Positions 4,017 through 58,082 are shown, counted from the stretch's first letter. The stretch is DNA of 64,000 nucleotides from Oscillospiraceae bacterium (GCA_015067545.1 SVMG01000008.1:8390-72389), one strand, 5' to 3'. Translations and numbers: made by a program. Notes: generated by a model not told the origin, from the letters alone.

Positions 4017-4296
4017 TTTGTGTGACCTCCGGGAAATCATGTTTTTAACATTATACCAAAAGCCGTCGAATAATGCAAGGGGGATATCATCGCAAGTGAT
4101 TACAACTTGTTACCGTTTTTTGAAAGGAAAAGTCCTGATTTATCACATTTTTTCTGAATATCCCCATGTTTATTATAAAAATAAGTTCAAGTGACATAAT
4201 ATTTTTTCCAAATATTTCTTTGGCGCGAAAAATATTTGATTTCCCCGGTCCTTTATGGTAAACTGGACTACACTAACAAAAGGAGGGATGCCCGGA

Positions 4297-14878: not shown

Positions 14879-15049
14879 TGGAATCAATCCTTTCAATCAT
14901 ACAGGAAAACCCTGTGTTTTTTGCGTCTACCATTATATCACAAAATTTTACTTTTTCAATAAAAATATTAAAAAATGGATTTGCCTATTTACCTTTTCCG
15001 AAAAATGGAGTATAATGCCGATGGAATTAACAATAAGGAGTGTTTTTAC

Positions 15050-16708
15050 ATGAAACTTTCTTCTCTTCAGCTGGCCAGATACCAGTATCAGCCCAAGCTG
15101 CCCGGTATGCTCAGAAACGGTATTTCTGAGATCTGTGTCAAGGACGGCGCTCCCACCGAAAGCGTGGCAGATCAGGAAAAGATCAAGGCTCTGTTCCCCA
15201 ACACCTACGGCAAGAATGAGATCACCTTCCAGAAGGGTGCCAACACCTCTCCTGCCAAGAAGCAGGTCGTGGGTGTCATCCTTTCCGGCGGACAGGCCCC
15301 CGGCGGTCATAATGTTATCTGCGGTCTGTATGACGCACTGAAGGCCACCAATAAGGATAATGTTCTGTATGGCTTCAAGGGCGGTCCCAGCGGTCTGCTG
15401 GAAGACAGCTACGTGATCTTCGACGACGAATATATCGATCAGTACCGCAATACCGGTGGCTTCGATATCATCGGCTCCGGCCGCACCAAGCTGGAGACTG
15501 AGGAGCAGTTTGCTGTGGTGGCCGAGGTTTGTAAGAAGCACGGCATTACCGCTATCGTCATCATTGGCGGTGACGACTCCAACACCAATGCAGCAGTCCT
15601 GGCTGAATACTTTGCCGCCCACAATACCGGCGTGCAGGTCATCGGCTGCCCCAAGACCATCGACGGCGACCTGAAGAACGAGGACATCGAGTGCTCCTTT
15701 GGCTTCGACACCGCCACCAAGACCTATAGCGAGATCATCGGCAACATCCAGCGCGATGCCAACTCCGCTAAAAAATACTGGCACTTCGTCAAGGTCATGG
15801 GCCGCAGCGCTTCCCATGTGGCTCTGGAGGCCGCATTGCAGACCCAGCCCAATATCTGCCTGATCGGCGAGGAGGTCGCTGCCAAGAAGATGTCTCTGGC
15901 TCAGATCGCTGACTACATTGCCGATTCTGTGGCTGCGCGCGCTGCCAAGGGTTGGAATTTCGGCGTTGCCATCATTCCCGAAGGTATCGTGGAGTTCGTT
16001 CCCGAGTTCTCCGTGCTGATCGCTGAGATCAACGAGCTGCTGGCAGGCAGCAAGGCGGATGCATTCAACGTGCTGCCCTCCTGGGAGGCTAAGTACGCCT
16101 TCATCGAAGCAGGTCTGACCAAGGAATCCATGGCCGTATTCGCCATTCTGCCCCAGTCCATCCAGCAGCAGCTGTTCCTGGAGCGCGACCCCCACGGCAA
16201 CGTGCAGGTGTCTCTGATCGAGTCTGAAAAGCTGTTCTCTGCCATGGTCAAGGAAAACCTGGCGGCACGGAAGGCTGCCGGTACTTATAACGGCAAGTTC
16301 TCTGCCCTGCATCACTTCCTGGGCTACGAAGGCCGCTGCGCTTTCCCCTCCAACTTTGACGCTGACTACTGCTACAGCCTGGGCTACAACGCATTCATGC
16401 TGATCCAGTACGGCTTCAACGGCTACCTCTCCAAGGTCTCCAACCTGAGCAAGAGCGCCGAAGAGTGGGTCGCCGGCGGTATGCCCATCACCAAGATGAT
16501 GAACATTGAGCGCCGCCATGGCCACGACAAGCCCGTTATCCGCAAGGCTTTGGTAGAACTGGACGGTGCGCCCTTCAAGTTCTTCGAAGCGAACCGCGAG
16601 CAGTGGGCCGTTGAGACCTGCTATGTCTACCCCGGTGCGATCCAGTACTTTGGACCCAGCGAGGTATGCGACCAGCCCACACGCACCCTGGCTCTGGAAA
16701 AGGCTTAA
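15050..16708 (+). CDS. pfp: Pyrophosphate-dependent phosphofructokinase (long, ~60 kDa type)
   Basis: [19 protein letters not shown] (Asp indicates PPi use), [20 protein letters not shown]. Confidence 0.95.
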
Positions 16709-39911: not shown

Positions 39912-40028
39912 CTAGCATAAAAATTATCACAATTTTTTACAAGAAACTAATTTAGTGTTACTGGAAAATTTTTAAGATTATAGCAAAAGCGACTGCCCAC
40001 ACGGCAGTCGCTTAAATATTGGTTTTGC
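39912..40028 (-). promoter_or_regulatory. Terminator plus sigma-A promoter with 21-bp-spaced direct repeats, copy 1
   Basis: AAGCGACTGCC-CACAC-GGCAGTCGCTT hairpin; TTGTAA (39937-39942)-N17-TATGCT (39914-39919); TTACAAGAA/TTACTGGAA repeats; 107/117 identical to 52702-52818. Confidence 0.75.
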
Positions 40029-40824
40029 GCAATTGACTGGGTGTCATGCCGGTAATGCGCTTAAACACATTGTTGAAGGTGCGAATATTGTCAAATCCGC
40101 ATTTTGCAGAAATATCCGTGAAAGTCAAATTTGTCCCCCGCACCAGCTTGACCGCCTGATTGATGCGGAAGCTATCCAGATATGTCTTGAAGTTTACCCC
40201 GGTATAGGTCACGAACAAGGTGGACACATAAACCGGATTGTAGTTGGTAATCCTTGCAATATCCGCAAGGGTGATGTTCTCCCGGTAATGGTCCGCAATA
40301 AACTGCAGCGCGTTCTGGAAATTGCGGAACTGGGTCAGTGTTTGTTCATCAGAGACATTTTCCCGTTCGAAGGATCGTACCAGCAGGCTGTACAACCGAA
40401 CGATATCCGCGCGGATCAGCACATCGCTCCAAACAGCATCCAGACATTTTTCTGCATACATTTCCTCAAATATCTCCCGGATGCGGCCATCGATACCGGC
40501 TTTTTTCAGTTCTTCTGCGGTGATAAAGGTTTGCACGATTTTAACATCGGGCTGGAAATAAAATAAGATGCTGGGATCAAAGGTGCAAATATACACGACG
40601 CTGTTTTCCGCTTCGGTAATGCTGTGGATATCTCCGCTTTGTACCACCGTCAGATCCCCTTTTTGGCACAGGCGACTGCTGCTTTTGCCCACCTTGATCC
40701 TACAGGTGCCCTCCAGCACCAGCACAAACTCTACCCGCTGGTGCCAATGGTCGAAGCCCCGGAGCAGGGCCTGGTACTTGGCTATCGTATAATTTGGCTT
40801 TATCGGTTCGTGAAAAATTTGCAT
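40012..40824 (-). CDS. AraC family regulator with cupin domain
   Basis: HWHQRVEFVLVLEG cupin; ITLADIA...YVSTLF...ISAKCGFDNIRTFNNVFKRITGMTPSQLR. Confidence 0.95.
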   Translation of the reverse strand: MQIFHEPIKPNYTIAKYQALLRGFDHWHQRVEFVLVLEGTCRIKVGKSSSRLCQKGDLTVVQSGDIHSITEAENSVVYICTFDPSILFYFQPDVKIVQTFITAEELKKAGIDGRIREIFEEMYAEKCLDAVWSDVLIRADIVRLYSLLVRSFERENVSDEQTLTQFRNFQNALQFIADHYRENITLADIARITNYNPVYVSTLFVTYTGVNFKTYLDSFRINQAVKLVRGTNLTFTDISAKCGFDNIRTFNNVFKRITGMTPSQLRKTNI

Positions 40825-40993: not shown

Positions 40994-43213
40994 TCAGGGA
41001 TTATTGGGATCGAAGGTCAGGTCCGTTGTAATGAGGATCTGATCCAGCTGAACATTCGCGGCGTAGCTTCTGAACTGAATGGTATAAGTCTCACCAGCAG
41101 TCCAGTTATAGGTCTTATTCTCACCAACTTGTGAGCCATTGGCAGTATTGTGCGTATGGAATTCCTGATATACTCTGACCCAGTAGAAATCTGTAGCACT
41201 TGTAGAATACTCATTCTTGCCAGCTTTGTTCAAGGGCTGCCGCCAGAAGTAGGTATCGGTTTCATTATCATCGCCGATCCAGCAATACAGGGCATCGCCG
41301 CGGTCTGTAGCAGGCAGGTTTGTATTCGGGGCGTAGACTTTCAGCCAGACATAGACCTCTCCGCTCAGTTCGGATTCCACAGTATAGGTCGCGTGTGGGA
41401 TAGGATCCTTAACATAATGGCTGCTTGAGGGTCTCAGGTAATTATAACCCGATGCCATCTTCTCAAACAAAACCGTCTGACTGCCGGCTGCATTGGAATT
41501 GGTTTTTAGCGAAACGAGATCCTGGGTTTCTGTTTGAACATTATCTGTTCCGTCCTCTGCCAGCACGCCGGTCTCAGCTTCAATAATCACAGAATTGCTG
41601 GGGAACATACTCTCACCGCACTGGCAGAAACCGTTGGTGTAGACATGCTCATGGGTAATGATAAACTGATCCAGTGCGGCATAAGCGCAACCGCTGGAAA
41701 CGCGAATGGCATAAGTCTTTCCTGCGGTCCAATGATAAGCATACGCTGCCCCATACGGATGGTTGAAGTCTGCGGTAGTGATGGAACCGGTAGCAAAATC
41801 CGCAGGATCGCTGCAGGGGTTAGGTGTCTTTCTGTAGGTATACTTCGTTTCATCGGTAGTAGTATCGTCCTCAACCAGAACGCCCGTAAATGTTTTGTCG
41901 GCCGCTGTGTAGACACCGGAGACCTTTACTGTGTAAACACCGGATACGGACGGAGTCACATACACGATCACATCGCCGGGATGCTCTTTTCTGGTTACAT
42001 AGCTGGAAGCACCGTTAAGTTGATATGCCGAATGCAGATTGTTCAGCTTAACAAGCTTTCTGTCTGCAACATTGCTGTTGGTGATCAGGTTCACGTAGTT
42101 GGTATTCAAAACGGCATCTGCAGCATTGATGGTAATGGAAGTGCCATCCATCACGAATACCTTCTCCTTATCACAGGATTCGCAAAGGCCATTTACATAC
42201 ACATGTCCATTGTGCCAGCAGCGCACAGCATTGCCGTAACGCATCATGGCATCGGTCAGCGCCTTCAGGTCGGCATCATATTCGCCGTTGGCAACTGCAT
42301 AGGCATAGCTTTCTACAGAGTAGATGAGTTTATCGCTCTCCCAGTCTGCGCTGGAGTTAAAGGCATTGGAATAGACCAGAGCGCTGATCTTCTCGCTGAG
42401 CTGGGTGGGATCCAGCACGCCTAAGTACACATAGTAGTGATCCTCAGTACCTTCTACCTTTTCGAAGTTACTGACATAAACATTCATGGATTTGTCTTCA
42501 TTCCAGAAGCGAACTGACAAATTCTCGATGCTGGGTGCTTTGATCTCATAGCGCAATGTGATGGAGTCCTTCAGATTCAGGCCCACGCCAACCCAGTCCA
42601 CCGTAGTCGGGGTCGGATCAGCTTCGGCACTGTACTCGAAAGTTTTGCTGTGGTTCGTCAGGCTCAGAGTGCCGGTGGTAGCCAGTGCAGCATACTCGCC
42701 CAGATCCGCATTGACCAAGGGAGTGGTTGCTTCTGCAAAGGTCTGGGTGGCTGCGCCGTAGTTCAGCAGATCCACCAGCATGGTGCGCAGCTCCGCATTC
42801 TTCCATGCCTCAGTGTTGCTTTCGTTTCTCAGAATGGTCATGCAGTAATCCTTAATGGAAGTGCTGAATTCGTCCTTGACCTCACCGCCGATATACAGCT
42901 TGGCGGTAACGGTTTCGCCCATCTGAGCAGGGGTCAGCTTTGTGCAGCGGAAGGCTACATTGCCATCTTCATCTGCTTCGGGCAGTGTGGTTCTGGTCTG
43001 CACCAGCTCCTCGCCCATGTAGAATTCCACTTTCTCGAAGCCTTCTTCGATGGCAGCCCGATTTGCAATAAAGCTGATAGAAATATCGTTCTGCAGATAC
43101 AGATTGTAGCCGGTAAATTTCGGCTCTGCGACCTCACCGGCCGCTCCCGCCATGGGCACGATGCTCAGCAGCATGGCCATGATCAGAAGCAAGGATAGAA
43201 TCTTTTTCTTCAT
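40994..43213 (-). CDS. Secreted non-catalytic modular protein A (two tandem unknown domains, His/Cys spacers, two CBM-like beta-sandwich modules)
   Basis: Signal MKKKILSLLLIMAMLLSIVPMAGA; tandem domains ending LLNYGAATQ and MMRYGNAV; last module YVWLKVYAP...YFWRQPL...LDQILITTD matches the lyase modules; ATG 43213 (GTG 43222 possible). Confidence 0.8.
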   Translation of the reverse strand: MKKKILSLLLIMAMLLSIVPMAGAAGEVAEPKFTGYNLYLQNDISISFIANRAAIEEGFEKVEFYMGEELVQTRTTLPEADEDGNVAFRCTKLTPAQMGETVTAKLYIGGEVKDEFSTSIKDYCMTILRNESNTEAWKNAELRTMLVDLLNYGAATQTFAEATTPLVNADLGEYAALATTGTLSLTNHSKTFEYSAEADPTPTTVDWVGVGLNLKDSITLRYEIKAPSIENLSVRFWNEDKSMNVYVSNFEKVEGTEDHYYVYLGVLDPTQLSEKISALVYSNAFNSSADWESDKLIYSVESYAYAVANGEYDADLKALTDAMMRYGNAVRCWHNGHVYVNGLCESCDKEKVFVMDGTSITINAADAVLNTNYVNLITNSNVADRKLVKLNNLHSAYQLNGASSYVTRKEHPGDVIVYVTPSVSGVYTVKVSGVYTAADKTFTGVLVEDDTTTDETKYTYRKTPNPCSDPADFATGSITTADFNHPYGAAYAYHWTAGKTYAIRVSSGCAYAALDQFIITHEHVYTNGFCQCGESMFPSNSVIIEAETGVLAEDGTDNVQTETQDLVSLKTNSNAAGSQTVLFEKMASGYNYLRPSSSHYVKDPIPHATYTVESELSGEVYVWLKVYAPNTNLPATDRGDALYCWIGDDNETDTYFWRQPLNKAGKNEYSTSATDFYWVRVYQEFHTHNTANGSQVGENKTYNWTAGETYTIQFRSYAANVQLDQILITTDLTFDPNNP

Positions 43214-43241
43214 AAAATTCACCTCATTTCATATTTGCCGG

Positions 43242-43376
43242 TCATCCGATGGGAATGATCGGTGTGGGGATACCGCCGCCGGTGTTTTCATTGTCTTCCA
43301 GCTCACCGCTCACTGTCAAGATGTTCTCGGCTTGGAATTTCAGAATCTCCAGCCTAGGTTCCAGAAATTCTTTCAT
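43242..43376 (-). CDS. 44-aa RiPP-precursor-like peptide A
   Basis: AAAGGAGG-N7-ATG; MKEFLEPRLEILKFQAENILTVSGELEDNENTGGGIPTPIIPIG; paralog at 57853-57987. Confidence 0.85.
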   Translation of the reverse strand: MKEFLEPRLEILKFQAENILTVSGELEDNENTGGGIPTPIIPIG

Positions 43377-43454
43377 ACTATTTCCTCCTTTTTGAAAATT
43401 TATATGCATGGGGCGACCGCCGCCGCGCCCATGGAATATACTTGTATGCCGCTT

Positions 43455-43483
43455 TGGCATAGCCACAAATTGCGGCTATGCCA
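43455..43483. other. Intergenic stem-loop between lyase A and peptide A
   Basis: TGGCATAGCC-ACAAATTGC-GGCTATGCCA, no U-tract; second imperfect stem at ~43407-43434. Confidence 0.65.
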
Positions 43484-43521
43484 GAAGTGGTTCATGCTGT
43501 TTTGAACGATCCGACAACGCC

Positions 43522-46500
43522 TTAGTTTTGCACGTAAGGATCATTCGCATCCGTGGTGATGTAGATCTCGTCGATCTGCACACCTGCAGTGTAGCCTCTG
43601 AAGCGCAGGGTATAGGCTTCACCGGCCTTCCAGTTGTAAACTCTGTCCGCACCCACCTGCGCTGTCGTATCAATCCGCTGATATACACGGACCCAGTAGA
43701 AATCTGTCTTGCCCTGGGAATATGTTCCATCCGCCTTCTTCAGGGACTGACGCCAGAAGTAGGTATCCGTTGCTTCGCCTTCCGCATTCATTCCGTCGAT
43801 CCAGCAGAAAACAGCATCGCCGCCGGCCCAGCTAACCGAATTGGGCGCATAGACCTTCAGCCAAATGTAGTATTCACCGGTCTGATCCGGGATTACACTG
43901 AAGGAGGCATGTGCGTTCGGAAATACGCCTTCCACCTCGGTCAATGTACCATTCACCAGGGTTCGATTGAGGGACAGTGCGTAGTAATTTGTATGCGTCC
44001 AGTTGAAGTACAGCGTTGCGCCGGCCGATGCCGCGGAATTGGCCTTTACTTTGGCAGGTGCATCTGTACTATTGGTGGTTACATTTTCCATGCCCGGTGC
44101 TGCGATCACTGCATTTTCACCCTGCAGAGTGCCCTTGCCGTTTGTCAACTTCACCGGTTCCAGCATGTTACAGACAGAGCAGTAACCATTGACAAAACTG
44201 TGGTTGCCCACATTGGCCTTGTCGCCGCAGACACATTGATGCCAGTGCTGTGTTCCGTCGAATGTCCAACTCTCGTTGAAGGTGCAGATATGCGCAGGAC
44301 GGACATAGCCGCAGTCATTGCAGGTAGTGTCCTTCAGATTGTCATAGATGTGTTCTGCCTTGCCGTTTATCAGCTCGTCATGGCCACAGTTTGCCTTGTG
44401 CCAGTGATAGGTCTCATCCTTTTCCCAGGCAGCGCTGAAGGAGTGGTTGTGAGGAGCATCATTGGGATCATTGGTGATATAGATCTCGTCGATCTGCACG
44501 CCTGCAGTGTAGCCTCTGAAGCGCAGGGTATAGGCTTCACCGGCCTTCCAGTTGTAAGCTCTGTCCGCACCCACCTGTGCTGTCGTATCAATCCGCTGAT
44601 ATACACGGACCCAGTAGAAATCTGTCGCGCCCTGGGAATATGTTCCATCCGCCTTCTTCAGGGACTGACGCCAGAAGTAGGTGTCCGTTGCCTTGCCTTC
44701 CTCATTTGTACCGTCGATCCAGCAGAAAACTGCGTCGCCGCCGGCCCAGCTAACCGAATTGGGTGCATAGACCTTCAGCCAAATGTAGTATTCACCGGTC
44801 TGATCCGGGATTACACTGAAGGAGGCATGTGCGTTCGGAAATACGCCTTCCACCTCGGTCAATGTACCATTCACCAGGGTTCGATTGAGGGACAGTGCGT
44901 AGTAATTTGTATGCGTCCAGTTGAAGTACAGCGTTGCGCCGGCCGATGCCGCGGAATTGGCCTTTACTTTGGCAGGTGCATCTGTACTATTGGTGGTTAC
45001 ATTTTCCATGCCCGGTGCTGCGATCACTGCATTTTCACCCTGCAGAGTGCCCTTGCCGTTTGTCAACTTCACCGGTTCCAGCATGTTACAGACAGAGCAG
45101 TAACCATTGACAAAACTGTGGTTGCCCACATTGGCCTTGTCGCCGCAGACACATTGATGCCAGTGCTGTGTTCCGTCGAATGTCCAACTCTCGTTGAAGG
45201 TGCAGATATGCGCAGGACGGACATAGCCGCAGTCATTGCAGGTAGTGTCCTTCAGATTGTCATAGATGTGTTCTGCCTTGCCGTTTATCAGCTCGTCATG
45301 GCCACAGTTTGCCTTGTGCCAGTGATAGGTCTCATCCTTTTCCCAGGCAGCGCTGAAGGAGTGGTTGTGAGGAGCATCATTGGGATCATTGGTGATATAG
45401 ATCTCGTCGATCTGCACGCCTGCAGTGTAGCCTCTGAAGCGCAGCGTGTAGGTCTCCCCGGCAGTCCAGTTGTAAACTCTGTCCGCACCCACCTGCGTTG
45501 TCGTATCAATCCGCTGATATACACGGACCCAGTAGAAATCTGTCGCGCCCTGGGAATATGTTCCATCCGCCTTCTTCAGGGACTGACGCCAGAAGTAGGT
45601 GTCCGTTGCTTCGCCTTCCGCGTTCATGCCGTCGATCCAACAGAAAACAGCATCGCCGCCGGCCCAGCTAACCGAATTGGGCGCATAGACCTTCAGCCAA
45701 ATGTAGTATTCACCGGTCTTATCCGGGATTACATTGAAGGAAGCGTGCGTGCTCGGCAGCATGCCATCCAGAGTCTGATTGTTGAACAATTTGGCATAAT
45801 CCGTATGGTTTCTGTTGAAGTGCAGTGTTGCGCCACCCGATGCAGCAGCATTGGTCTTCACTGTGGCAGGTGCATCTGTATAGTCGCTGATCACGTTTTC
45901 CATGCCAGGCGCTGCCACTGCTGCATGTTCGCCCTGCAAGGTTCCTCTGCCGTTTGTCAGCTTCAGCGGCTCCATCATATTACAGACAGAACAGTAGCCA
46001 TTTGCAAAGCTGTGGCTGCCCACATTGGTCTTTTCACCGCAGGCACATTGGTGCCAGTGCTGGGTGCTGTTAACGCTCCAGCGCTCGCTGAAGGTGCAAA
46101 CATGCTCAGGACGGACATAGTTACAATCGTTACAGGTGGTGTCCTTCAGATTATCATAGTTATGCTTGGCCTTACCGGTGATCATGCCCGTATGGCAGGA
46201 GGACGTCCACCAGTGATAGGTGTCATCATAGCTCTTCAGAGAATTCCAGGTGTGATTATGCGGCACATCGCTTGCGCTGTTTGTGATGTAGATCTGATCC
46301 ACCCGGACACCGGCTACTGTTCCTCTGAAGCGCAGAGCATAGGTCTGCCCGGCAGTCCAGTTATAGGTATGGTCCGCAAACTTTTCTGTATTTTGTTTCC
46401 ATTCCTGGTTCAGGCACACCCAGATGTAATCCCCTTCACCCTTGGAGTATCCGTTCAATGCCAGCGGCTGACGCCAGTAGTAGGTATCCGAACCGCCATC

Positions 46501-49500
46501 CACATATGCATAGATATATGCACCATAGGACGCATTCGCGGGGGCGTACACCTTCAGCCAGATGTAGTATCGCCCGGTCCTTTCAGGCGTTACCAGTACG
46601 CTCAGGTGCGGGATCGGTGTTGTGCCTTGATCCGGGAATGTATTCCAGCCGGAATTCGTTCTGACGAACTGCACAGCCTTACCGCCCTCTGCTTCGGCAC
46701 TTTCCACAACCTTAACAACAGCGCCTGTGTAATCAGGAATATGGTTTTCCTTACCGTCCGGTGCAAGCATCAAATTTTCTGCTTCCAATGTCAGCTTTCC
46801 GCCGGAGATCGTAAAGGGTGCCAGGCCGCCGCAGATGGTACACTTGCCGTCTGCATAATTGTGGGGCGCATAATTGGGATTCTTGTAGCCGCAGGTATTG
46901 CATTCCTTATCCGTATGATCCTCAAAGAAATGCTCAGCGTAAGCTCTGGGGGCTACATTCTGGCATCCACAGGTGGCATCGAACCAGTGATGGGTATCAT
47001 TGCCGTTCCATGTGCTGCTGTAGGAATGGTTATGCGGTGCGTCCTTCGGATCGTTGGTGATCAGAATTTCGTCCACCTTTACGCCAACAGACATGCCTCT
47101 GAGACCGATGGTATAGACTCTGCGGGCTTTCCAGTGATAGGAATGCTCTTTATGCAGACCCGCTGCCATGCTCGTGTACTCCTGATACAGTCTGACCCAG
47201 ATGTAATCCTCTTCGTCTGCAGAGTAGGTCTCCATAGTCAACGGCTGCTGCCAGAAATAGTAGTCGTCACCGCCGTCGATCCAGGCGTAGATAAATGTAC
47301 CCTTCGGTGCATAAAGCTTGACCCAGATATAGTACTCGCCGCCTTCATCCGGCATCACTTGGAAACTCAGATGCGGTGTTGCTTCCGAAGTGGCATTCGC
47401 CAATTGATTCCATGCACTGTGCTGTCTCATAAAGCGAACTGCCTTACCGCCTGCCGCACCAGCGCTTTCCACAACCGCTGCAACTTCACCCTTGTAATAG
47501 CTATTCAGATCGGTAGCATCCAAAATGACCGTTTCCTCACCTGCAGGCTGCAGCTTTGCCTCTTCTGCCTGAACGGTGATCTTACCGCCACTGGTCTTGA
47601 ATACGCCCTGCGGCAATTCACAGGTTGTGGTAAACGAGCCAAAGGTTACACCCTTGGAGCAGGTCTTGATGCGCACGTAGATGGACTCAGCAGCCTGAAT
47701 GTTCACCTCTCCCAGCTTAATCTTGACATACTGGTTTGCCGACACTGCGGCAACCTCACTCAGGTCGCACAGGGTGTATTTAAAATCGTCATCATTTGCA
47801 GAAATTGCATAGAAGAACTGATCATTACTCAGACTGCTTACCTTAACGGTGGCATAGATGGAGTAGATACCACTGGTATCCGTAAGGATATTCAGGGACA
47901 GATCACCGGGCAGATTCTTCGTGCTCAGCACATAGTCCTTGTAGGCCTCGCTTACAGTACCGTCCGCAGAAACAGACTGCAAACGCGCATCATTTCCGGA
48001 GGCTTTCGCCATAGAATGCTCATAAATGGTATCCTTGGCATTGACAGATACGATACCGCTGGTGCTGGTCTTCTTGCTGTAGCAAGCTTCATAAGGCACA
48101 TAGCTTGCATCGGGCGAGACTATGAAGCAGTCAAAGACAAGACCTTCACATCCGGAGATCACGGACAGGGTGTATGCCTCTCCAGACGTCCACTTAGCCA
48201 GTGCAGTTTGATCCTCATACTGACCCAGCTTGATCCATACGTAACCATCCTTATCTTTCTTACCTACATTGATTTTTTCAGGATAGTAGGTATTGCCGGT
48301 CACGCCGTCAATGTTGACCCAGATGGTATCCCCGGAGGTCACCTTGGATGCATTGACCTTAGCCCAAATGTAATGCACCGCTGTGCGCCTTGGGATAAAG
48401 GTGGCAGAGAGTTGCGGTTTCGCTGCATCCACCGTACCGGGATTGGTGGTATATCCCACATTGGAAATGACCACTTCACGACCGGACGCATTGTTATCCT
48501 GTTCCACCTTTACCGTGTCTTCCTTGTTAAAGCATTCTGCCTCAGCAAGCAATGTTTGACCGATAACCTCGGCACCGTTGGGATCGATGACTGCTTTCTG
48601 CAGGAAGATGATTTCCGTCACGATGCTCCAGCCATTGTCAATTGTGGAATTCTGCTTACCGGAAGTCATATATCTGTAGCGGCCATGGCCGACAAATTTG
48701 ACATATCTGGCCTCTTCGCTCATGGGCAGCGTCAGATAAGTATTCAGCCATGTATAACGCCCCACTTCGCCTGATTGCGCTTTATCGTAAACCGTCTCCC
48801 AGTTTACACCGTCCGTGGATACTAAGAGATCAAAGATGTAATTACTGTAGGCACTCTCATCGCCCCAGAAATAGAGAACAACGTCTGTCAGCTGAATGGT
48901 CTTGCCGAAATCAAAAATTGCTTCACAGATGTTATTTCCGGATTTCTGACTGGTCCAGCGGGTGGTAATATCACCATCCAGCGCTTGAATCACGGGCAGG
49001 GTGGAGTATCCGTTGTCGATGACCGCCTCTACCTGCGCCGCAGTGGGGAACTTGTACAGAATTTCATCAGACAGTAAAGGAACATTGTTGTCAATATTTA
49101 CCGTAACACGAATGCGGTTAATGAAACGGTCATAATACATGGAACCCTCGACCAGCTTCATAAGTGTCGTCGAATCCATCAACAGATCACCGGCCGCCGC
49201 ACGGATCTCGTTGAATGCAACCGATTCCCCGTTAGCTGTCAAGGAATTGGCGGTTATGACATAGACAACACCCTTGTACCGAACTGTATAAGCAGTTTTG
49301 TCCTTATTCCAGGAACCCTTGCCGTTCAGTGCATCAAAAATGACGGTAACGGGGAACAGGTAATCCTCACCGGACTTCACGGGATGTGCATCGGTATAAT
49401 AGTAGAAATTGTTGATCATGATTCCGATGGGCTCTTCTTCCACGATCGGAGTCTCATCAAAGGTCTTATTGCTTTCGGATCCGGAACGAACCAGTTTCAC

Positions 49501-52500
49501 AGTGCCGGCTGCAGCCTCAAAGTAGATCATACCGCCCTCTTCGGAGGCAATCTGCGTGCCAACGGACTTGCCATCCACATAAACAGTCCAAGTACCGGCC
49601 TGCAGACCTGCTACATTGACCTTGAAAGTGCTGTAGCCTTCGTTCTGAGGAATCGTGAAGGAAACATCACTGCTGATGCGGTGGTTGCCGTCCATATTGA
49701 ACATGGCAACATGGTTCATCAGCTGTGCGCCCATGACTACGCCCTTGCCGTCGTAGATCAGTTTTGCAGGGATAACCGTAGCATCACCGTCTGCATCTCC
49801 CACATACATGACATTGAGCATATAGTCGGTTTGTTCTTCAACCGTAGTGGTTGTACTGATTTCCACACGGCCCCAGCCGGACTCCTCACACAACGTGCTT
49901 TCAAAGGTTCCGCTAAGTGCATAGTTATAGTTACCCACAACAAATTCTTTGCTGGGACCACCGATCTTGGTGATCGTGTAAGCATCGTCCTTTTGGGTGG
50001 CAGTACCAACATACAGCACCTGATTGGTGAGCATGCCGTTATAATCGCCCTCTGTATTTTTAATGACGATCGTGTTGCCGTCCACTTCCGGCTCGGATTG
50101 CATATGCAGCAAGAAGCTCTTCTTGGAGCCCACCAAACTGGTCTTGATCTGATCAAAGACCACAAATGCACCGGGATGCTCTGTATTGCCGTCCAGCTCC
50201 AGATTCAGGAACAGCATGCTTCTGACTGCTTCCTGCGCATTTGTATCGGTAGCGGTACGGTAGGACGCTGCAATGTCGCCGGCAAGATAGGAGTATTCCG
50301 GCTTATAGATGTTCGGGCCGAACTCATGTCCAAGCACAGAGTTGACGACTCTGTTTATGCCGTCCACGCCCCAGTCAGGATCCGAAGCCGTAACCTGCGT
50401 GCCGTAGCGATTTTGGGGAGAGGTAATGGTTAGCGTATTATGGGCAATGGAAGTGGTCACATAATACTGATGATGGGGCAGGCGTACCGTTCCCGTATAC
50501 ATGCCTGAATCGCTGGCCAAAATACCTTTATAATAGATTTGGAAGTGGCCCGCATCGCGATGCTGGTGGATGGTTGCAAATACAGATGTCAGCTGCATTC
50601 TTGCAATCACATCGTTGGAGTCAATGCCCATATCCCAACCTGTCCGGGCCGTCATGGAGCCGGAAGGTATATCAAAATACTGGGTGTAAGGCAGATCCGA
50701 ATACTTCTTCGTCTCGACCTCCGGATCGAAGACTGTCAGCACCTCGATGAAATCTCTCGTGTCGAACGCAAGGTTGCTCAATTCCCTAGACACGCGAAGC
50801 AGAATTCCATCTTTGTAGAAGCTGCCGGCGCGAGCAAAATGGTCTGCATTTTCACTCCAAAGCGTGCCCTTATTGGTTTGATTTTCCTCCCAGGTGTCAC
50901 CTTCACGGAGGAACTGACCGTCAGGACGCAGCGAATACAGCAAGCCATAGGAAATGCTGCGGAAGCTTTCAGGATTCATCGCTACATAGCCATCTGCCTT
51001 ACCATCTCCGTCCCGGTCGTTGTCACCGCCGGTCATGCTGTAGAGATCCAACTGGCATATCAGATCGGAATCATGACGTCCACCGGCACCGTAGCTGGCA
51101 CCCTGATGGTGAATTCCGGCAACATTCCACGCATTTCTGCTGGAGGGGAACATCTCGAACCACCAGCCGGCGATCACCTCATACATGGAAGGATATTCGT
51201 CGTACATAGCAATTGCGACTGCCATCCAGTATTGCTGAATCAGCGGGCCGCCATGATGGCCTGTAACGGTACCAGCCAAAGAGCCCAATTCTACAGGCCA
51301 GCCGGCTTCATTCAATGCGCCAAGCCACTGTGCACGGTCAGCCAGATACTGTTTGTCTTCGTAGGTCAGCAGATCATAGCACCAGTCGTAGACTTCTGCC
51401 AAAGTCATCTGGCAGTAGCCCAAATAGTATGTATTCTGACCACCGTCCATAGGCGGGAAGCGCACAGTTTCTGCCAATTTCTTGCACGCACGCACCGCTA
51501 TTTTTCCGTAGTATTGCGCCATATGCGCCTTTTTCGAATCCTCACTATCCTTATATAGTGCATAATACAGTGCTTTTGCACGTATCGAGAAGACTTTATC
51601 GGTGCTGTAGTTGGTTTTCAGATAGGTGACGTTGCCATCATCATCTACCGTTTTCTCGGGCTCGCTCAATACACCGTTAAAGGTCATGCCCAACAGCCGG
51701 AAGAATTCATTCGCCAGCCCGGCGCACTCCTCCGACTCCAGCGTCTTAACAATGCGGGGAATATCCTCCTGAACAAACCGCAGTCTGGGATGCTCACCAA
51801 CAGTCGGTGTGACAAGGGGTGCTGCAAATTCCTCCCATGTCAGATTAGACATAGAGCTATACATGGCCTCGACGACGGTCTCAGTCTGATCCGCCATCTC
51901 GTAGGTCATGGTGGCAGTGGCCTCATACTCCTTGCCATCGACAATGAATTTGACCGAGGCATTGAGCACATTGTCATCGCCCATGATCATGTCGCCGATG
52001 TTCAGGCCTGCGGCACTTACATCCACTGCAGGAATGCAGGGCAGCAGCATGCCCAGGGAAAGCACCAGGGCAATGCAGGAAATAACACCTCTGCGCTTCA
52101 GGATCAAAAATACGATGCCGCCGATGCCCGCAAGGGCCAGCACGATCAAAATGATCAGCACCGCGATCTGACCGCCGGGAACGCCCTCACCCTCATTTGT
52201 ATCCGAGGGAGTCTCCTCCGGCTGGGTGCTGGGAGTGGTGGACTCGGGGTCCTGGGGTTCTTCCGGAGGATCCACGATCTTCATCAGCCGGTAATTGATG
52301 ACTGCCCGCTCACCCACCTCCACGGTCCGGGTGCCGGTAGCCTCGCCCGCCAAAAGTGTCAGCTCTCCCCCGGGGATCGTTGCATCCCAGGAGATATTGG
52401 CCAGCTTCATATTGGTATTATAGTTTTTTGCCAGTAAAAGGATCTGGATTTCTTCGTTCACATCGTATTCCTGCTTGGATGTGACGATCTCAAAGGTCAT

Positions 52501-52605
52501 TCCGTCTCCGGCCGCATATTCTGCTGCCGCAGTGGTCACGGCAAACAATGTGACCAACGCCACAGCTGCCACGAGCAATGTTCTGAGAATCTTGTTTTTC
52601 TTCAT
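43522..52605 (-). CDS. 3027-aa multimodular heparinase II (PL21)-like polysaccharide lyase A
   Basis: HPRL, TGHHG, HQGASYG, LRPDGQFLREGD, ARTGW, HQHRDAGHFQIYYKG, IAHNTL, FGPNIYKPEYSYLAGDI match heparinase II as recalled; then a Cu-amine-oxidase-N-like domain, an F5/8-type C domain, seven beta-sandwich modules and His/Cys spacers. Confidence 0.85.
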   Translation of the reverse strand: MKKNKILRTLLVAAVALVTLFAVTTAAAEYAAGDGMTFEIVTSKQEYDVNEEIQILLLAKNYNTNMKLANISWDATIPGGELTLLAGEATGTRTVEVGERAVINYRLMKIVDPPEEPQDPESTTPSTQPEETPSDTNEGEGVPGGQIAVLIILIVLALAGIGGIVFLILKRRGVISCIALVLSLGMLLPCIPAVDVSAAGLNIGDMIMGDDNVLNASVKFIVDGKEYEATATMTYEMADQTETVVEAMYSSMSNLTWEEFAAPLVTPTVGEHPRLRFVQEDIPRIVKTLESEECAGLANEFFRLLGMTFNGVLSEPEKTVDDDGNVTYLKTNYSTDKVFSIRAKALYYALYKDSEDSKKAHMAQYYGKIAVRACKKLAETVRFPPMDGGQNTYYLGYCQMTLAEVYDWCYDLLTYEDKQYLADRAQWLGALNEAGWPVELGSLAGTVTGHHGGPLIQQYWMAVAIAMYDEYPSMYEVIAGWWFEMFPSSRNAWNVAGIHHQGASYGAGGRHDSDLICQLDLYSMTGGDNDRDGDGKADGYVAMNPESFRSISYGLLYSLRPDGQFLREGDTWEENQTNKGTLWSENADHFARAGSFYKDGILLRVSRELSNLAFDTRDFIEVLTVFDPEVETKKYSDLPYTQYFDIPSGSMTARTGWDMGIDSNDVIARMQLTSVFATIHQHRDAGHFQIYYKGILASDSGMYTGTVRLPHHQYYVTTSIAHNTLTITSPQNRYGTQVTASDPDWGVDGINRVVNSVLGHEFGPNIYKPEYSYLAGDIAASYRTATDTNAQEAVRSMLFLNLELDGNTEHPGAFVVFDQIKTSLVGSKKSFLLHMQSEPEVDGNTIVIKNTEGDYNGMLTNQVLYVGTATQKDDAYTITKIGGPSKEFVVGNYNYALSGTFESTLCEESGWGRVEISTTTTVEEQTDYMLNVMYVGDADGDATVIPAKLIYDGKGVVMGAQLMNHVAMFNMDGNHRISSDVSFTIPQNEGYSTFKVNVAGLQAGTWTVYVDGKSVGTQIASEEGGMIYFEAAAGTVKLVRSGSESNKTFDETPIVEEEPIGIMINNFYYYTDAHPVKSGEDYLFPVTVIFDALNGKGSWNKDKTAYTVRYKGVVYVITANSLTANGESVAFNEIRAAAGDLLMDSTTLMKLVEGSMYYDRFINRIRVTVNIDNNVPLLSDEILYKFPTAAQVEAVIDNGYSTLPVIQALDGDITTRWTSQKSGNNICEAIFDFGKTIQLTDVVLYFWGDESAYSNYIFDLLVSTDGVNWETVYDKAQSGEVGRYTWLNTYLTLPMSEEARYVKFVGHGRYRYMTSGKQNSTIDNGWSIVTEIIFLQKAVIDPNGAEVIGQTLLAEAECFNKEDTVKVEQDNNASGREVVISNVGYTTNPGTVDAAKPQLSATFIPRRTAVHYIWAKVNASKVTSGDTIWVNIDGVTGNTYYPEKINVGKKDKDGYVWIKLGQYEDQTALAKWTSGEAYTLSVISGCEGLVFDCFIVSPDASYVPYEACYSKKTSTSGIVSVNAKDTIYEHSMAKASGNDARLQSVSADGTVSEAYKDYVLSTKNLPGDLSLNILTDTSGIYSIYATVKVSSLSNDQFFYAISANDDDFKYTLCDLSEVAAVSANQYVKIKLGEVNIQAAESIYVRIKTCSKGVTFGSFTTTCELPQGVFKTSGGKITVQAEEAKLQPAGEETVILDATDLNSYYKGEVAAVVESAGAAGGKAVRFMRQHSAWNQLANATSEATPHLSFQVMPDEGGEYYIWVKLYAPKGTFIYAWIDGGDDYYFWQQPLTMETYSADEEDYIWVRLYQEYTSMAAGLHKEHSYHWKARRVYTIGLRGMSVGVKVDEILITNDPKDAPHNHSYSSTWNGNDTHHWFDATCGCQNVAPRAYAEHFFEDHTDKECNTCGYKNPNYAPHNYADGKCTICGGLAPFTISGGKLTLEAENLMLAPDGKENHIPDYTGAVVKVVESAEAEGGKAVQFVRTNSGWNTFPDQGTTPIPHLSVLVTPERTGRYYIWLKVYAPANASYGAYIYAYVDGGSDTYYWRQPLALNGYSKGEGDYIWVCLNQEWKQNTEKFADHTYNWTAGQTYALRFRGTVAGVRVDQIYITNSASDVPHNHTWNSLKSYDDTYHWWTSSCHTGMITGKAKHNYDNLKDTTCNDCNYVRPEHVCTFSERWSVNSTQHWHQCACGEKTNVGSHSFANGYCSVCNMMEPLKLTNGRGTLQGEHAAVAAPGMENVISDYTDAPATVKTNAAASGGATLHFNRNHTDYAKLFNNQTLDGMLPSTHASFNVIPDKTGEYYIWLKVYAPNSVSWAGGDAVFCWIDGMNAEGEATDTYFWRQSLKKADGTYSQGATDFYWVRVYQRIDTTTQVGADRVYNWTAGETYTLRFRGYTAGVQIDEIYITNDPNDAPHNHSFSAAWEKDETYHWHKANCGHDELINGKAEHIYDNLKDTTCNDCGYVRPAHICTFNESWTFDGTQHWHQCVCGDKANVGNHSFVNGYCSVCNMLEPVKLTNGKGTLQGENAVIAAPGMENVTTNSTDAPAKVKANSAASAGATLYFNWTHTNYYALSLNRTLVNGTLTEVEGVFPNAHASFSVIPDQTGEYYIWLKVYAPNSVSWAGGDAVFCWIDGTNEEGKATDTYFWRQSLKKADGTYSQGATDFYWVRVYQRIDTTAQVGADRAYNWKAGEAYTLRFRGYTAGVQIDEIYITNDPNDAPHNHSFSAAWEKDETYHWHKANCGHDELINGKAEHIYDNLKDTTCNDCGYVRPAHICTFNESWTFDGTQHWHQCVCGDKANVGNHSFVNGYCSVCNMLEPVKLTNGKGTLQGENAVIAAPGMENVTTNSTDAPAKVKANSAASAGATLYFNWTHTNYYALSLNRTLVNGTLTEVEGVFPNAHASFSVIPDQTGEYYIWLKVYAPNSVSWAGGDAVFCWIDGMNAEGEATDTYFWRQSLKKADGTYSQGKTDFYWVRVYQRIDTTAQVGADRVYNWKAGEAYTLRFRGYTAGVQIDEIYITTDANDPYVQN
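43557..45700. repeat. 918-bp (306-aa) intragenic tandem repeat, about 2.3 copies
   Basis: Near-identical blocks start at 43557, 44475 and 45393; identical antisense ORFs at 44003 and 44921 are 918 bp apart. Confidence 0.95.
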
Positions 52606-55244: not shown

Positions 55245-55458
55245 CGCTGCCTGCACTCCTTTCGTTGTTTTTTGTGGCATGGCTTTATTCCATTATTGTA
55301 TGCATTTCTTCACTTTTTTGCAACAGTCAATAATTTCCAGTTTTCCGAAGTCTTGGGAAATCCTCTGATTGTATTATACAGAATCTTTTCGGCAACTTCA
55401 TCCCCATATTTTTGCAAAAGACCCGTGTTTTTACATTTTTGGCTCTTTTGCAAAAAAA

Positions 55459-55523: not shown

Positions 55524-57824
55524 TTATTCAGCAGGAGTAGTGCAAGTAATAACGAACTGGTCGATTGCTATACGGGTGCTACCACTTGCAACACGAATTG
55601 CATAGGTTTTGCCTGCAGTCCATTGATATTCCGTACCATAGACCATGGGAATGATCGAACCACCACTAAAACTTGCAGGAACACTACAGGGATTAGGTGT
55701 CCACCTAGGTCCGAATTTTGTCTCACTGGTGGTAGTATCATCCTCAACCAAAACACCTGTCAAAGTAACATTGGCCCTTGTGTAAACACCGGTGGTTGCC
55801 ACTGTATAGGTACCGGATATCGAGGGTGTAACATACACGATCACATCACCAGGATGAACTGCGGTCGTTACATAAGCATTATTGATGTATGCAGAATGAG
55901 CATTGTTCAGCTTAACAAGCTTTCTGTCCCCAACATTGGAATTCGTGATCAGCTCCACATAATCCGTATTTAAAATAGCCTCTTCGGCATTGATGGCGAT
56001 GGTATTGCTATCCATCACGAACACGCGTTGCTTACCACATTCGCAAACACCGTTGGTATAGGTGTGCTCCACCTTGCTCTCGTCCAGGTCGGTGCAGCCA
56101 CAGGTGTAATCATACCAGTGGTGGGTATCGTCATATGCAATCTCCTTGGTGTGGACGTGTCTTTCCTCACCACAGCCATTGCAGGTGATATCTGCATCAT
56201 CGTCATAGGTATGAATATGTGTGATCGTAAACTGGTCATAACCAATGTTGGAACTGGTGGCCAAGAGGCGGATCGCATAGGTCTTGCCGGCTACCCACTG
56301 ATAACTGTCACCAAATTCAACAGTCGTAAACTTCGACATTTCTGCAAAAGATTTGCCGGTCTCTGTTGCTTCTGCAATTCGCATATACTGATAATAAGTA
56401 TTCTCTGTGGTGGATTCATCCTCCACAAGATAGCCAACAGCGGCAGCACCCTTGGTTGCTACCAATGCTTCAATCTGATAGGTGCCACTCTTTGCAGGAG
56501 TCACATACATAATGACATTACCGGGATATGTCGCCGGAGCATGCACAATCGTCTGATCCACTGCTACCTGGGTTATATATGTTTTAGCATCACTGTAAAC
56601 AAAGCGGGTAGCACTCTCTACAGTCGTTGTGGCAAAGCGCTTATTGAAGCTGATAATGCCCCCAGACTTCGCATTCTCATTAGAAGCGCTATTGACCGCA
56701 CCATACTCATTTGTTTTTATATTCAAGACGGCTTTGTTAACGTCAATGGTAATGGTGTCGGTAGTCATTCCAAATACCTTTTCCTTGTCACAGGATTCAC
56801 ACTTACCATTCACATACACATGGCCGTTGATCCAGCAGCGCACGGCATTGCCGTAACGCATCATAGCATCGGTCAGGGCCTCCAGTTCTGCAGAGAAGCC
56901 AGTGCCATTTGCAACGGCGTATGCATAGCTTTCTGCAGAATACATCAGCTTGTGACTTGTACGGACGCTGTCCTCAGTATTGTAGGCTAAATAGGCTACT
57001 GCGCTCACTGTTTCGCTGAGCTGGGCAGGATTCAGCATGCCGAAATAGGCATAGTAGTGATCCTCAGTGCCCTCGACCTTCTCAAAATCAGTAACCCATG
57101 CATCAAGAGTCTTGCCGTCATTGAAGAAATGGATTGCCAGACCTTCAACGCTTTCAGCCACGAACTCGTAGCGCAGTGTAACGGAATCCTTCAGGTTCAG
57201 GCCTACGCCGTACCAGGTAACAGTAGGTGCGGTAACATCTGTATACTCATACAGACTGCATGCATTAGTCAGGCTCAGATTACCGGTGGTAGCCAGTGCA
57301 GCATACTCGCCCAGATCCGCATTGACCAAGGGAGTGGTTGCTTCCGCAAAGGTCTGAGTAGCCGCGCCGTAGTTCAGCATATCCACCAGCATGGTGCGCA
57401 GCTCGGCATTCTTCCACGCCTCAGTGTTGCTTTCGTTTCTCAGAATGGTCATGCAGTAATCCTTAATGGAAGTGCTGAATTCATGCTTGACCTCGCCGCC
57501 GATATACAGCTTAGCGGTAACCGTTTCGCCCATCTGAGCAGGGGTCAGCTTTGTGCAGCGGAAGGATACATTACCGTTTGCGTCTGCCTCAGGCAGAGTC
57601 GTTCTGGTCTGCACCAGTTCCCCGTCAATGTAGAATTCTACTTTCTCAAAGCCTTCTTCAATAGCAGCCCGATTTGCTTCAAAGCAGATTGCAATATCGT
57701 TCTGCAGGTACAGATTGTAGCCGTTGAATTTCGGCTCGGCAGCTTCGCCGGCCGCTCCTGCCATGGGCACGATGCTCAGCAGCATGGCCATGACCAGAAG
57801 CAAGGATAGAATCTTTTTCTTCAT
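55524..57824 (-). CDS. Secreted non-catalytic modular protein B, paralog of 40994-43213
   Basis: N-terminal ~200 aa nearly identical to paralog A; C-terminal modules differ. Confidence 0.8.
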   Translation of the reverse strand: MKKKILSLLLVMAMLLSIVPMAGAAGEAAEPKFNGYNLYLQNDIAICFEANRAAIEEGFEKVEFYIDGELVQTRTTLPEADANGNVSFRCTKLTPAQMGETVTAKLYIGGEVKHEFSTSIKDYCMTILRNESNTEAWKNAELRTMLVDMLNYGAATQTFAEATTPLVNADLGEYAALATTGNLSLTNACSLYEYTDVTAPTVTWYGVGLNLKDSVTLRYEFVAESVEGLAIHFFNDGKTLDAWVTDFEKVEGTEDHYYAYFGMLNPAQLSETVSAVAYLAYNTEDSVRTSHKLMYSAESYAYAVANGTGFSAELEALTDAMMRYGNAVRCWINGHVYVNGKCESCDKEKVFGMTTDTITIDVNKAVLNIKTNEYGAVNSASNENAKSGGIISFNKRFATTTVESATRFVYSDAKTYITQVAVDQTIVHAPATYPGNVIMYVTPAKSGTYQIEALVATKGAAAVGYLVEDESTTENTYYQYMRIAEATETGKSFAEMSKFTTVEFGDSYQWVAGKTYAIRLLATSSNIGYDQFTITHIHTYDDDADITCNGCGEERHVHTKEIAYDDTHHWYDYTCGCTDLDESKVEHTYTNGVCECGKQRVFVMDSNTIAINAEEAILNTDYVELITNSNVGDRKLVKLNNAHSAYINNAYVTTAVHPGDVIVYVTPSISGTYTVATTGVYTRANVTLTGVLVEDDTTTSETKFGPRWTPNPCSVPASFSGGSIIPMVYGTEYQWTAGKTYAIRVASGSTRIAIDQFVITCTTPAE

Positions 57825-57852
57825 AAAATTCACCTCATTTCATATTTACCGA

Positions 57853-57987
57853 TCACCCAATGGGAATTACCGGTGTGGGAACGCCACCGCCAGTGTTTTC
57901 ATCATCTTCCAGTCCACCGCTCGCGGTTAGGATGTCCTCGGCATGGAATTTCAGAATCTCCAGCCTAGGTTCCAGAAATTCTTTCAT
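57853..57987 (-). CDS. 44-aa RiPP-precursor-like peptide B (absent from the ORF track)
   Basis: AAAGGAGG-N7-ATG; MKEFLEPRLEILKFHAEDILTASGGLEDDENTGGGVPTPVIPIG; 37/44 identical to peptide A. Confidence 0.85.
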   Translation of the reverse strand: MKEFLEPRLEILKFHAEDILTASGGLEDDENTGGGVPTPVIPIG

Positions 57988-58018
57988 AGCATTTCCTCCT
58001 TTTTAAAATTTATTTTCG

Positions 58019-58039
58019 GGGTGCGGCAATGCCGCACCC
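58019..58039. repeat. GC-rich stem-loop, copy 3, upstream of peptide B
   Basis: GGGTGCGGCA-A-TGCCGCACCC, with compensatory changes relative to copies 1 and 2; no U-tract. Confidence 0.75.
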
Positions 58040-58082
58040 TCTGATTTTGGATCAAAACGGAAATTGTATCAACACTGCATGA

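Follow-up and report, generated by a model that had tools for sequence, protein, structure and literature searches.

The window analysed here, a stretch of Oscillospiraceae DNA 64,000 nucleotides long, encodes two short peptides that are orphan precursors of the RiPP type, nearest among known systems to the Linear Polyphosphorylated Peptides (LPP) described in Bacilli by Popov et al. (Nat Commun 2026, PMC13381572). What is novel in them is a clostridial type of leader, their dispersal, and their coupling to a secreted domain. We assign a probability of about 70% to the reading that these are real clostridial precursors, the counterpart of the LPP precursors of Bacilli, that they are matured in trans, and that each peptide is paired outside the cell with the domain to which its gene is coupled, here called domain X.

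Two copies of a precursor peptide gene

Copy A lies at 43376..43242 on the minus strand, where 44 codons specify the 44-residue peptide MKEFLEPRLEILKFQAENILTVSGELEDNENTGGGIPTPIIPIG. Copy B, at 57987..57853 on the same strand, likewise has 44 codons for 44 residues and shows 84% identity to copy A: MKEFLEPRLEILKFHAEDILTASGGLEDDENTGGGVPTPVIPIG. GGAGG precedes the ATG of copy A at 8 nt, and both copies carry the conserved ribosome-binding stretch AAAAAGGAGGAAAT (43377..43397, minus strand, for copy A), with which the duplicated block starts. Identity between the two copies is 95% from position 43397 downwards and about 50% upstream of it; the block thus runs from about 20 nt 5' of the peptide ATG into the downstream gene, and the hairpin region farther 5' shows no conservation between the two. 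Over their first 14 codons both have the same DNA, and across the gene there are 8 synonymous and 7 conservative non-synonymous codon differences. The peptide of copy A is laid out as a leader of roughly residues 1 to 21 or 23, containing F4-x-x-P7-x-L9, a T21-V-S23 junction, and an acidic core running to IPTPIIPIG. It has no signal sequence.

Twelve close homologues were found in ruminant-gut metagenomes, the best with an E-value of 1e-20, and an exhaustive profile search of 1.8 billion proteins returned 32 representative clusters with E-values down to 8e-13. Two variants, 43293 G>A and 43317 C>T, recorded in four sequencing runs, are synonymous third-position changes. A bovine metatranscriptome contig covers 43150-43374, which includes the peptide gene and the first part of the one after it, at a depth of 3.5 that makes it weak evidence. 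Neither the window peptide nor any of three relatives matched a model when compared with Pfam and NCBIfam. Both ORFs are confirmed as real genes.

A metagenome scan for the exact leader MKEFLEPRLE gave a single match, L134, which was set aside as a chance occurrence in an unrelated high-GC contig. A close-alignment pattern search of genome contigs gave 44 pattern matches, none of which was confirmed, so the species represented by the window is probably absent from that genome collection.

A broad family of clostridial peptides

A profile built from the 12 close homologues recovers a broad family of peptides of 30 to 65 residues, with the pattern MK.[YF]..P.[LIVM]E[IV]..F..ED[VI][IL]T.S followed by a variable acidic core, the mean net charge being -3.5. 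Scanning species-representative genomes with a degenerate DNA pattern yielded at least 118 blocks, of 8 kb each, containing at least 134 peptides. Among the matches listed, all hosts are Clostridia except for one metagenome-assembled genome labelled Prevotella; they include Oscillospiraceae, Acutalibacteraceae, Ruminococcus, Faecousia, Monoglobaceae, some Lachnospiraceae, and the isolate R. flavefaciens ND2009. The exceptional genome (L056, labelled uncultured Prevotella, Bacteroidota) has a peptide of the family type that may reflect a binning error, horizontal transfer or a chance match.

Across 178 relatives, Ser occurs at the junction in 94% and Thr two residues before it in 81%, neither residue having been part of the search pattern. 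In 119 of them the aromatic residue of the leader is Tyr and in 59 it is Phe; cores range in length from 7 to 41 residues. One 1013-residue match (P0034) that might have been taken for a fusion was rejected as a repetitive artefact.

In a two-peptide variant, found in Acutalibacteraceae and relatives (L020, L066, L070, L078, L082, L085, L088, L092, L116 and L119), a long peptide of the form MISKAYEKADF...DYSDFFQ is followed by a short peptide ending in DDGWY. On the 5' side of the pair are three uncharacterised secreted proteins of about 1000, 380 and 360 residues; on the 3' side come, in order, a peptidase (sometimes fused to PF14907), a Wzz/tyrosine kinase and a LysM-STN-Secretin_N protein.

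Maturation enzymes are absent from the window and present beside relatives

Pfam scans of the ORFs in the 64-kb window found no RRE, cyclase, B2 peptidase, radical SAM enzyme or peptide exporter, and comparison of the window with profiles made from related loci, for PqqD, the S24-like peptidase, the HprK-like kinase and PF14907, found none of these either. The sole SGGxDS PP-loop in the window belongs to MnmA, a MalK-type sugar-import ATPase is the sole ABC component there, and the ORF of 577 residues at 14975..16708 encodes a PPi-phosphofructokinase. Together the Pfam scans and custom profiles, covering all 64 kb, uphold the statement of the earlier note that no maturation enzyme is encoded in the window. 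Likewise, of the six close-clade peptides whose contexts were examined, none adjoins maturation genes. Given the lack of enzymes within 64 kb, the window copies would be matured by a locus elsewhere; they are dispersed orphans, most likely processed in trans. At least ten genomes carry two or more peptide loci, on separate contigs. Scattered components also have a precedent within LPP itself, since a table in PMC13381572 lists an RRE and precursor located away from the peptidase.

Other relatives do adjoin such genes. A peptide that matches copy A at 48% identity from end to end, C-terminal PIIPIG included (P0023), sits in a five-peptide array; after the array come a PqqD protein (PF05402, E 1.7e-15) and then a 150-residue protein resembling SipW-like signal peptidase I of the archaeal/ER type. 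Among the matches listed, 29 of 118 blocks have at least one of four recurrent maturation genes and 10 of 118 have at least three. Partners found across the loci are a PqqD-type RRE encoded as a discrete protein, a SipW-like peptidase of the Ser/His/Asp type, an HprK-like kinase, a nucleotidyltransferase (PF14907) and an MsbA-like exporter. In a Pfam analysis of 136 neighbour proteins, the counts were PqqD 10, ABC_membrane 8, NTP_transf_5 7 and Peptidase_S24 5, and the same set includes Wzz and tyrosine-kinase ATPase proteins, LysM/STN/Secretin_N proteins and three radical SAM proteins. The earlier note is right in seeing a leader-plus-core precursor that has an RRE-binding motif but no enzymes nearby, which leaves processing in trans, or a function connected with secreted proteins, as the two live options. 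PqqD-type RREs do adjoin relatives, and its suggestion to search for S24/S26 peptidases was also apt, the partner peptidase of the relatives being SipW/S26-like.

The peptidases and RREs of these loci can be matched directly to LPP components. All complete peptidases of the family loci have GxSMxP, HR and GD motifs, equivalent to the catalytic S29, H68 and D93 of LppS, the SipW-like peptidase that cleaves the LppA precursor after Thr(-1) (PMC13381572). Our peptidase profile matches LppS at 7e-22 and a clostridial SpI protein, SCH01704.1 ("uncultured Ruminococcus", SSN cluster 9), at 2e-47, and our RRE profile matches the LPP protein LppB at 1.4e-11. A protein of 230-270 residues encoded directly 3' of the peptide has an SGTGKST P-loop and weak, sub-threshold matches to ScmC and HprK-related kinase models; from the P-loop and these matches it is, weakly, a candidate HprK-like kinase. 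Comparing a 240-residue protein of this kind with the PDB by sequence returned nothing useful.

Several arrangements beside relatives stand out individually. In five loci (L029, L082, L088, L105 and L020), the SipW-like peptidase and the PF14907 nucleotidyltransferase are fused in a protein of 540-580 residues, which argues that both act on the same substrate. At another (L040:1145-2430), a radical SAM/SPASM protein whose best NCBIfam match, below threshold, is ScmE is encoded 68 nt after a family peptide that ends in ..YDQYCVG, so that this leader type apparently also works with another kind of maturase. Wzz/tyrosine-kinase, LytR and LysM-STN proteins are encoded at many of the related maturation loci; the window locus, by contrast, is a polysaccharide-lyase-like locus with AraC-type utilisation regulators.

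Linkage of the peptide to domain X

Among the matches listed, the peptide gene begins between -30 and +60 nt (median 16) after a same-strand gene in 91 of 113 evaluable cases, and by a crude rule 56 of 62 complete upstream products begin with a signal-peptide-like segment. In the largest group of these upstream proteins the C-terminal region, of about 200 residues, is domain X, in which the motifs YS..DY...L ... MLNYGAAAQ..F are followed by a beta-sandwich and then by S.ESY ... L..AM..YG.AA..Y. A domain X profile made from the C-termini of 22 unrelated upstream proteins matches both secreted proteins encoded next to the window peptides, at 42209..42877 (minus strand, E 3.6e-24) in the 739-residue protein after copy A and at 56826-57488 (minus strand, E 1.6e-24) in its 766-residue counterpart after copy B. 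The usual order places domain X at the C-terminus of the upstream gene product, while in the clade of the window it is at the N-terminus of the downstream gene product, directly after the signal peptide in the proteins of 739 and 766 residues. In both orders the peptide gene adjoins, within about 30 nt, DNA that codes for domain X. The same adjacency was seen for all eight distinct peptides with contexts obtained by protein look-up, except the five-peptide array of P0023. At three loci (L065, L130 and L073), a domain-X protein, a peptide and maturation genes share one operon. This order-independent linkage between peptide and domain X is new; it is not described in PMC13381572.

Cores encoded beside domain X are short and have Pro near the C-terminus (..GLPIG, ..QTPYG, ..TPEIPF, and ..TPIIPIG in the window). 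Such a core occurs in 21 of 27 cases beside domain X and in 7 of 71 others (Fisher p = 1.6e-10, for a feature defined after seeing the data and with statistics that ignore phylogeny). Other peptide subfamilies follow different beta-sandwich C-termini. The short gaps suggest near-stoichiometric co-expression of each peptide with its neighbour.

An AlphaFold model of residues 29-345 of the 739-residue protein has a pLDDT of 87.7 and contains two units, each a beta-sandwich with a helical hairpin. A sequence-profile search of the PDB with domain X found no relative, and Foldseek comparison of the model returned only generic tandem Ig/FN3 folds with TM scores of 0.2-0.33, so the fold gives no functional lead.

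Genomic neighbourhood in the window

The same minus-strand order occurs twice in the window: a giant secreted protein, G+C-rich hairpin sequence, the peptide, a 28-nt gap, and the secreted protein of 739 or 766 residues. The gene for the 739-residue protein (40994..43213, minus strand) starts at an ATG at 43213 that follows GAGGTG, 28 nt past the peptide stop, its longest ORF beginning at a GTG at 43222. The paralogous gene after copy B (55524..57824, minus strand) encodes 766 residues from the ATG at 57824 or 769 from a GTG at 57833. In the 739-residue protein, the signal peptide and the two beta-sandwich and helical-hairpin units of domain X are followed by a CBM-like C-terminal domain that is also common to the giant lyase-like proteins; neither the 739- nor the 766-residue protein had a Pfam match.

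Upstream of copy A is the gene for a secreted HepII_C / F5_F8_type_C protein of 3027 residues (43522..52605, minus strand), and upstream of copy B is that for its paralogue of more than 1948 residues (minus strand, from 58083 to beyond 63929). The giant gene is not needed for the pairing of peptide and 739-residue protein, since one related locus (L010) has the pair without it, and the pair is kept in metagenomic contigs even where the giant gene is missing. The giant proteins contain HepII_C, F5_F8_type_C and Cu_amine_oxidN1-like domains and several near-identical modules of about 306 residues, visible as a 918-nt repeat in the ORF pattern, which are rich in CxxC pairs and end in a CBM-like domain. 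Tandem Repeats Finder reported nothing in these genes, the repeat of about 918 nt being beyond its period limit. Long antisense ORFs (e.g. 43408..48774, 1788 residues) are by-products of the repetitive coding sequence of the giant genes.

Two G+C-rich hairpins (43456-43482 and 43410-43430, within 43410..43482, minus strand, z -3.8) separate the gene for the 3027-residue protein from peptide copy A, and a single one (58018..58040, minus strand, z -3.0) separates the gene for the protein of more than 1948 residues from copy B. The hairpins of the two copies are unrelated in sequence and have no clean U-tract on the coding strand; they may terminate, attenuate or stabilise the transcript, those of copy A probably acting as a leaky terminator or a stabiliser. 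Promoter and terminator scans around the peptides were uninformative.

Both modules are followed by genes for AraC-type regulators and sugar dehydrogenases. Two AraC-family regulators (53073-55280 and 40012-40824, both minus strand) flank the modules of peptide and domain-X protein, one with a weak, sub-threshold dCache-like match in its sensor region and the other with a cupin; the GFO/IDH/MocA and zinc-ADH genes alongside them give a layout that resembles a polysaccharide-utilisation regulon. Elsewhere (321-1961 and 1989-4040, minus strand), the window encodes a protein with a cohesin domain and, beside it, a phage-lysozyme protein with Big_3, SH3 and type I dockerin domains, and the organism therefore has a cellulosome-like cohesin-dockerin system.

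Proposed pathway and alternative explanations

By analogy with LPP, an RRE encoded elsewhere would bind the leader through F4..P7.L9 and present it, an HprK-like kinase would phosphorylate the conserved Ser23, a SipW-like peptidase would cut after Thr21 or alternatively after Ser23, and an exporter would release a linear acidic peptide of 21-23 residues. The exported peptide would then work outside the cell with domain X of the co-expressed secreted protein. A more specific version, which we regard as tentative and clearly less probable than not, is an extracellular system of two parts, LPP-like peptide and domain X, in which the peptide, once exported and perhaps carrying a phospho- or glyco-modification, would dock onto domain X; such docking might tether enzymes or adhesins to the capsule or cell surface. 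What allows the docking idea is that adjacency occurs in either gene order and that core type co-varies with the type of domain in the neighbour.

The main rival to maturation in trans is that the machinery has been lost and a leader-like peptide repurposed, with no RiPP enzymes at all and the unprocessed 44-residue form itself active, perhaps as a partner in fixed stoichiometry, as a helper in folding or export, or as a regulator of the adjacent domain-X protein. We think this unlikely, even though several observations fit it: no enzymes occur in 64 kb or beside the close-clade homologues examined, coupling to the neighbouring gene is tight (28 nt in the window, against a family median of 16 nt), and the unit of duplication is the peptide together with the domain-X gene. 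A peptide lacking a signal sequence could not, however, meet a Sec-exported neighbour unless it were itself exported; the leader and T-x-S are conserved, as they should be were both still recognised by an RRE and a peptidase; and the three operons described above unite domain-X proteins, peptides and enzymes. Far less probable is a regulatory uORF, in which translation would couple to or regulate the downstream 739-residue gene and the amino-acid sequence would be irrelevant. The 28-nt gap to the next start, the upstream hairpins and the single RNA contig across the junction could all be read in this way, yet amino-acid conservation is strong across hundreds of species, and the explanation was rejected on finding that the gene order is reversed in most relatives, the peptide gene lying downstream of its partner in 91 of 113 among the matches listed. 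That the ORFs are chance occurrences or mis-annotations, as their small size and the empty Pfam and NCBIfam searches might have hinted, is scarcely credible in the face of a strong ribosome-binding site, two copies showing synonymous drift, profile E-values to 8e-13 among 1.8 billion proteins, and conserved synteny.

The earlier note had read the peptide as lasso-like, and the features that it saw are present in both copies: FLEPRL, Thr21 (at -2), Ser23 (as Ser1) and Glu at core position 8. Lasso leaders of Firmicutes, moreover, look like the leader in the window (PMC7533575). The leader motif and Thr are, however, common to LPP and PQQ precursors and so do not discriminate between lasso, LPP and PQQ. 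A true lasso precursor, with Ser23 and Glu30 cyclised by a B1/B2/C system encoded elsewhere, is very improbable, and we rejected this reading from the enzymes seen and because no acceptor keeps a fixed position. Asn_synthase and Transglut_core3 are absent from the 25 most frequent Pfam families of the 136 neighbours, Peptidase_S24 being among those families. A search for the SGGxDS motif in the at least 118 related blocks identified no lasso cyclase; the sole SGGxDS protein among the matches listed is a 660-residue ORF (beside L098) that from its motif and length is a putative NAD synthetase. There is no PF13471 B2 peptidase in the window, and relatives have a SipW/S24-like serine peptidase instead, as judged from the 25 commonest families. 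Asp or Glu occupies core positions 7-9 in 65% of the 178 cores, compared with 60% for positions 4-6, so the acidic residue reflects composition and not a fixed ring acceptor. Cores are shorter than 15 residues in 32 of 178, the minimum being 7, and indels separate Ser from the acidic run even among close homologues. Its description of an orphan, RiPP-like precursor holds, with conserved leader and junction and no local enzymes, and its assignment to the lasso type does not.

Significance

The family spans well over 100 species from gut and rumen, and because most copies are orphans scattered through the genome, genome mining based on clusters will miss them. Linkage to domain X replaces the "function unknown" of LPP with a hypothesis of binding that is open to direct test. 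If true, the docking model would provide the first functional role for RiPPs of the LPP type and a previously unrecognised route of surface display in Clostridia. With their window partners in a locus of giant heparinase-II-like enzymes, the peptides may be relevant to the way in which polysaccharide-degrading machinery is deployed by gut Clostridia.

Comparison with known systems

SipW, in the biofilm operon of Bacillus subtilis, is a signal peptidase of the ER/archaeal type encoded beside TasA and TapA, the secreted matrix proteins that it serves. The best NCBIfam model for the family peptidases is likewise TIGR02228, with scores below threshold. The family peptidase differs in that it is predicted to cut a cytoplasmic peptide presented by an RRE, not a Sec signal peptide, and we found no evidence for processing of the neighbouring secreted proteins by the SipW-like peptidase. 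With PqqA/PqqD and other RiPPs that use a discrete RRE, such as radical SAM/SPASM peptides, the family shares a leader read by a PqqD-fold domain and, at the one locus noted above, a radical SAM/SPASM maturase; the window differs in having no radical SAM enzyme, and its cores have no Cys or obvious residue for cross-linking.

Lasso peptides of the paeninodin type, from Bacillota, resemble the family in their RRE-binding [Y/W]xxPx[L] leader, in Thr near the cleavage site, and in their accessory HprK-like kinase, NTP-transferase and ABC exporter. They differ in that the family is without an Asn-synthetase-like cyclase, B2 peptidase or fixed ring acceptor and has cores as short as 7 residues. Paeninodin leaders, moreover, typically have Trp where the family has Tyr or Phe (PMC13381572).

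The closest system is LPP, which in Bacilli comprises LppA, LppK, LppB, LppS, LppD and LppN. The LppA leader, YxxPxVLxHQxIxFETxxS, is bound by the discrete RRE LppB, which reads the Tyr hydroxyl of the leader, and the HprK-like kinase LppK polyphosphorylates core Ser3 of LppA; LppD is an MsbA-like exporter and LppN an NTP-transferase, and the clusters are often found in capsule loci (PMC13381572). The chemistry is known for LppA of P. alginolyticus alone, and according to its authors the final product and function of LPP are unknown, as is the role of phosphorylated lasso peptides (PMC13381572).

The differences from LPP are several. The family leader, [Y/F]xxPx[L]E[IV]xxFxxED[VI][IL]TxS, has EDVI in place of FE and is one residue longer from the aromatic residue to Ser; its junction is T-x-S, compared with T-x-x-S in LppA; and the window peptides have Phe at the Tyr position. 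Hosts here are Clostridia (Oscillospirales), the window copies are without nearby enzymes, and most family copies are orphans joined to genes for domain-X secreted proteins, an arrangement absent from PMC13381572.

The likenesses extend from precursor to locus. Precursors in both systems are short and combine an MKK..YxxPx[VL] leader with a junction of the Thr...Ser type and a hypervariable core that is often rich in Gly, Asp and Pro, the leader design of aromatic-xx-P-x-aliphatic ... F ... T..S being the same in the family and in LppA. The partner set of RRE, peptidase, kinase, PF14907 protein and exporter is the same, with no cyclase, and so are frequent siting in polysaccharide loci (Wzz/tyrosine-kinase, LytR) and the occasional scattering of components. 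The conserved Thr and Ser fit the T...S junction of LPP at least as well as the Thr(-2) and Ser1 of lasso peptides, and a junction of LPP type, with cleavage after Thr and phosphorylation on Ser, explains them better, an assignment made by analogy only because the spacing differs. Clostridial SpI/RRE pairs in SSN clusters 4 and 9 were given without determined precursors (PMC13381572); the family described here appears to supply the precursors missing for those clusters.
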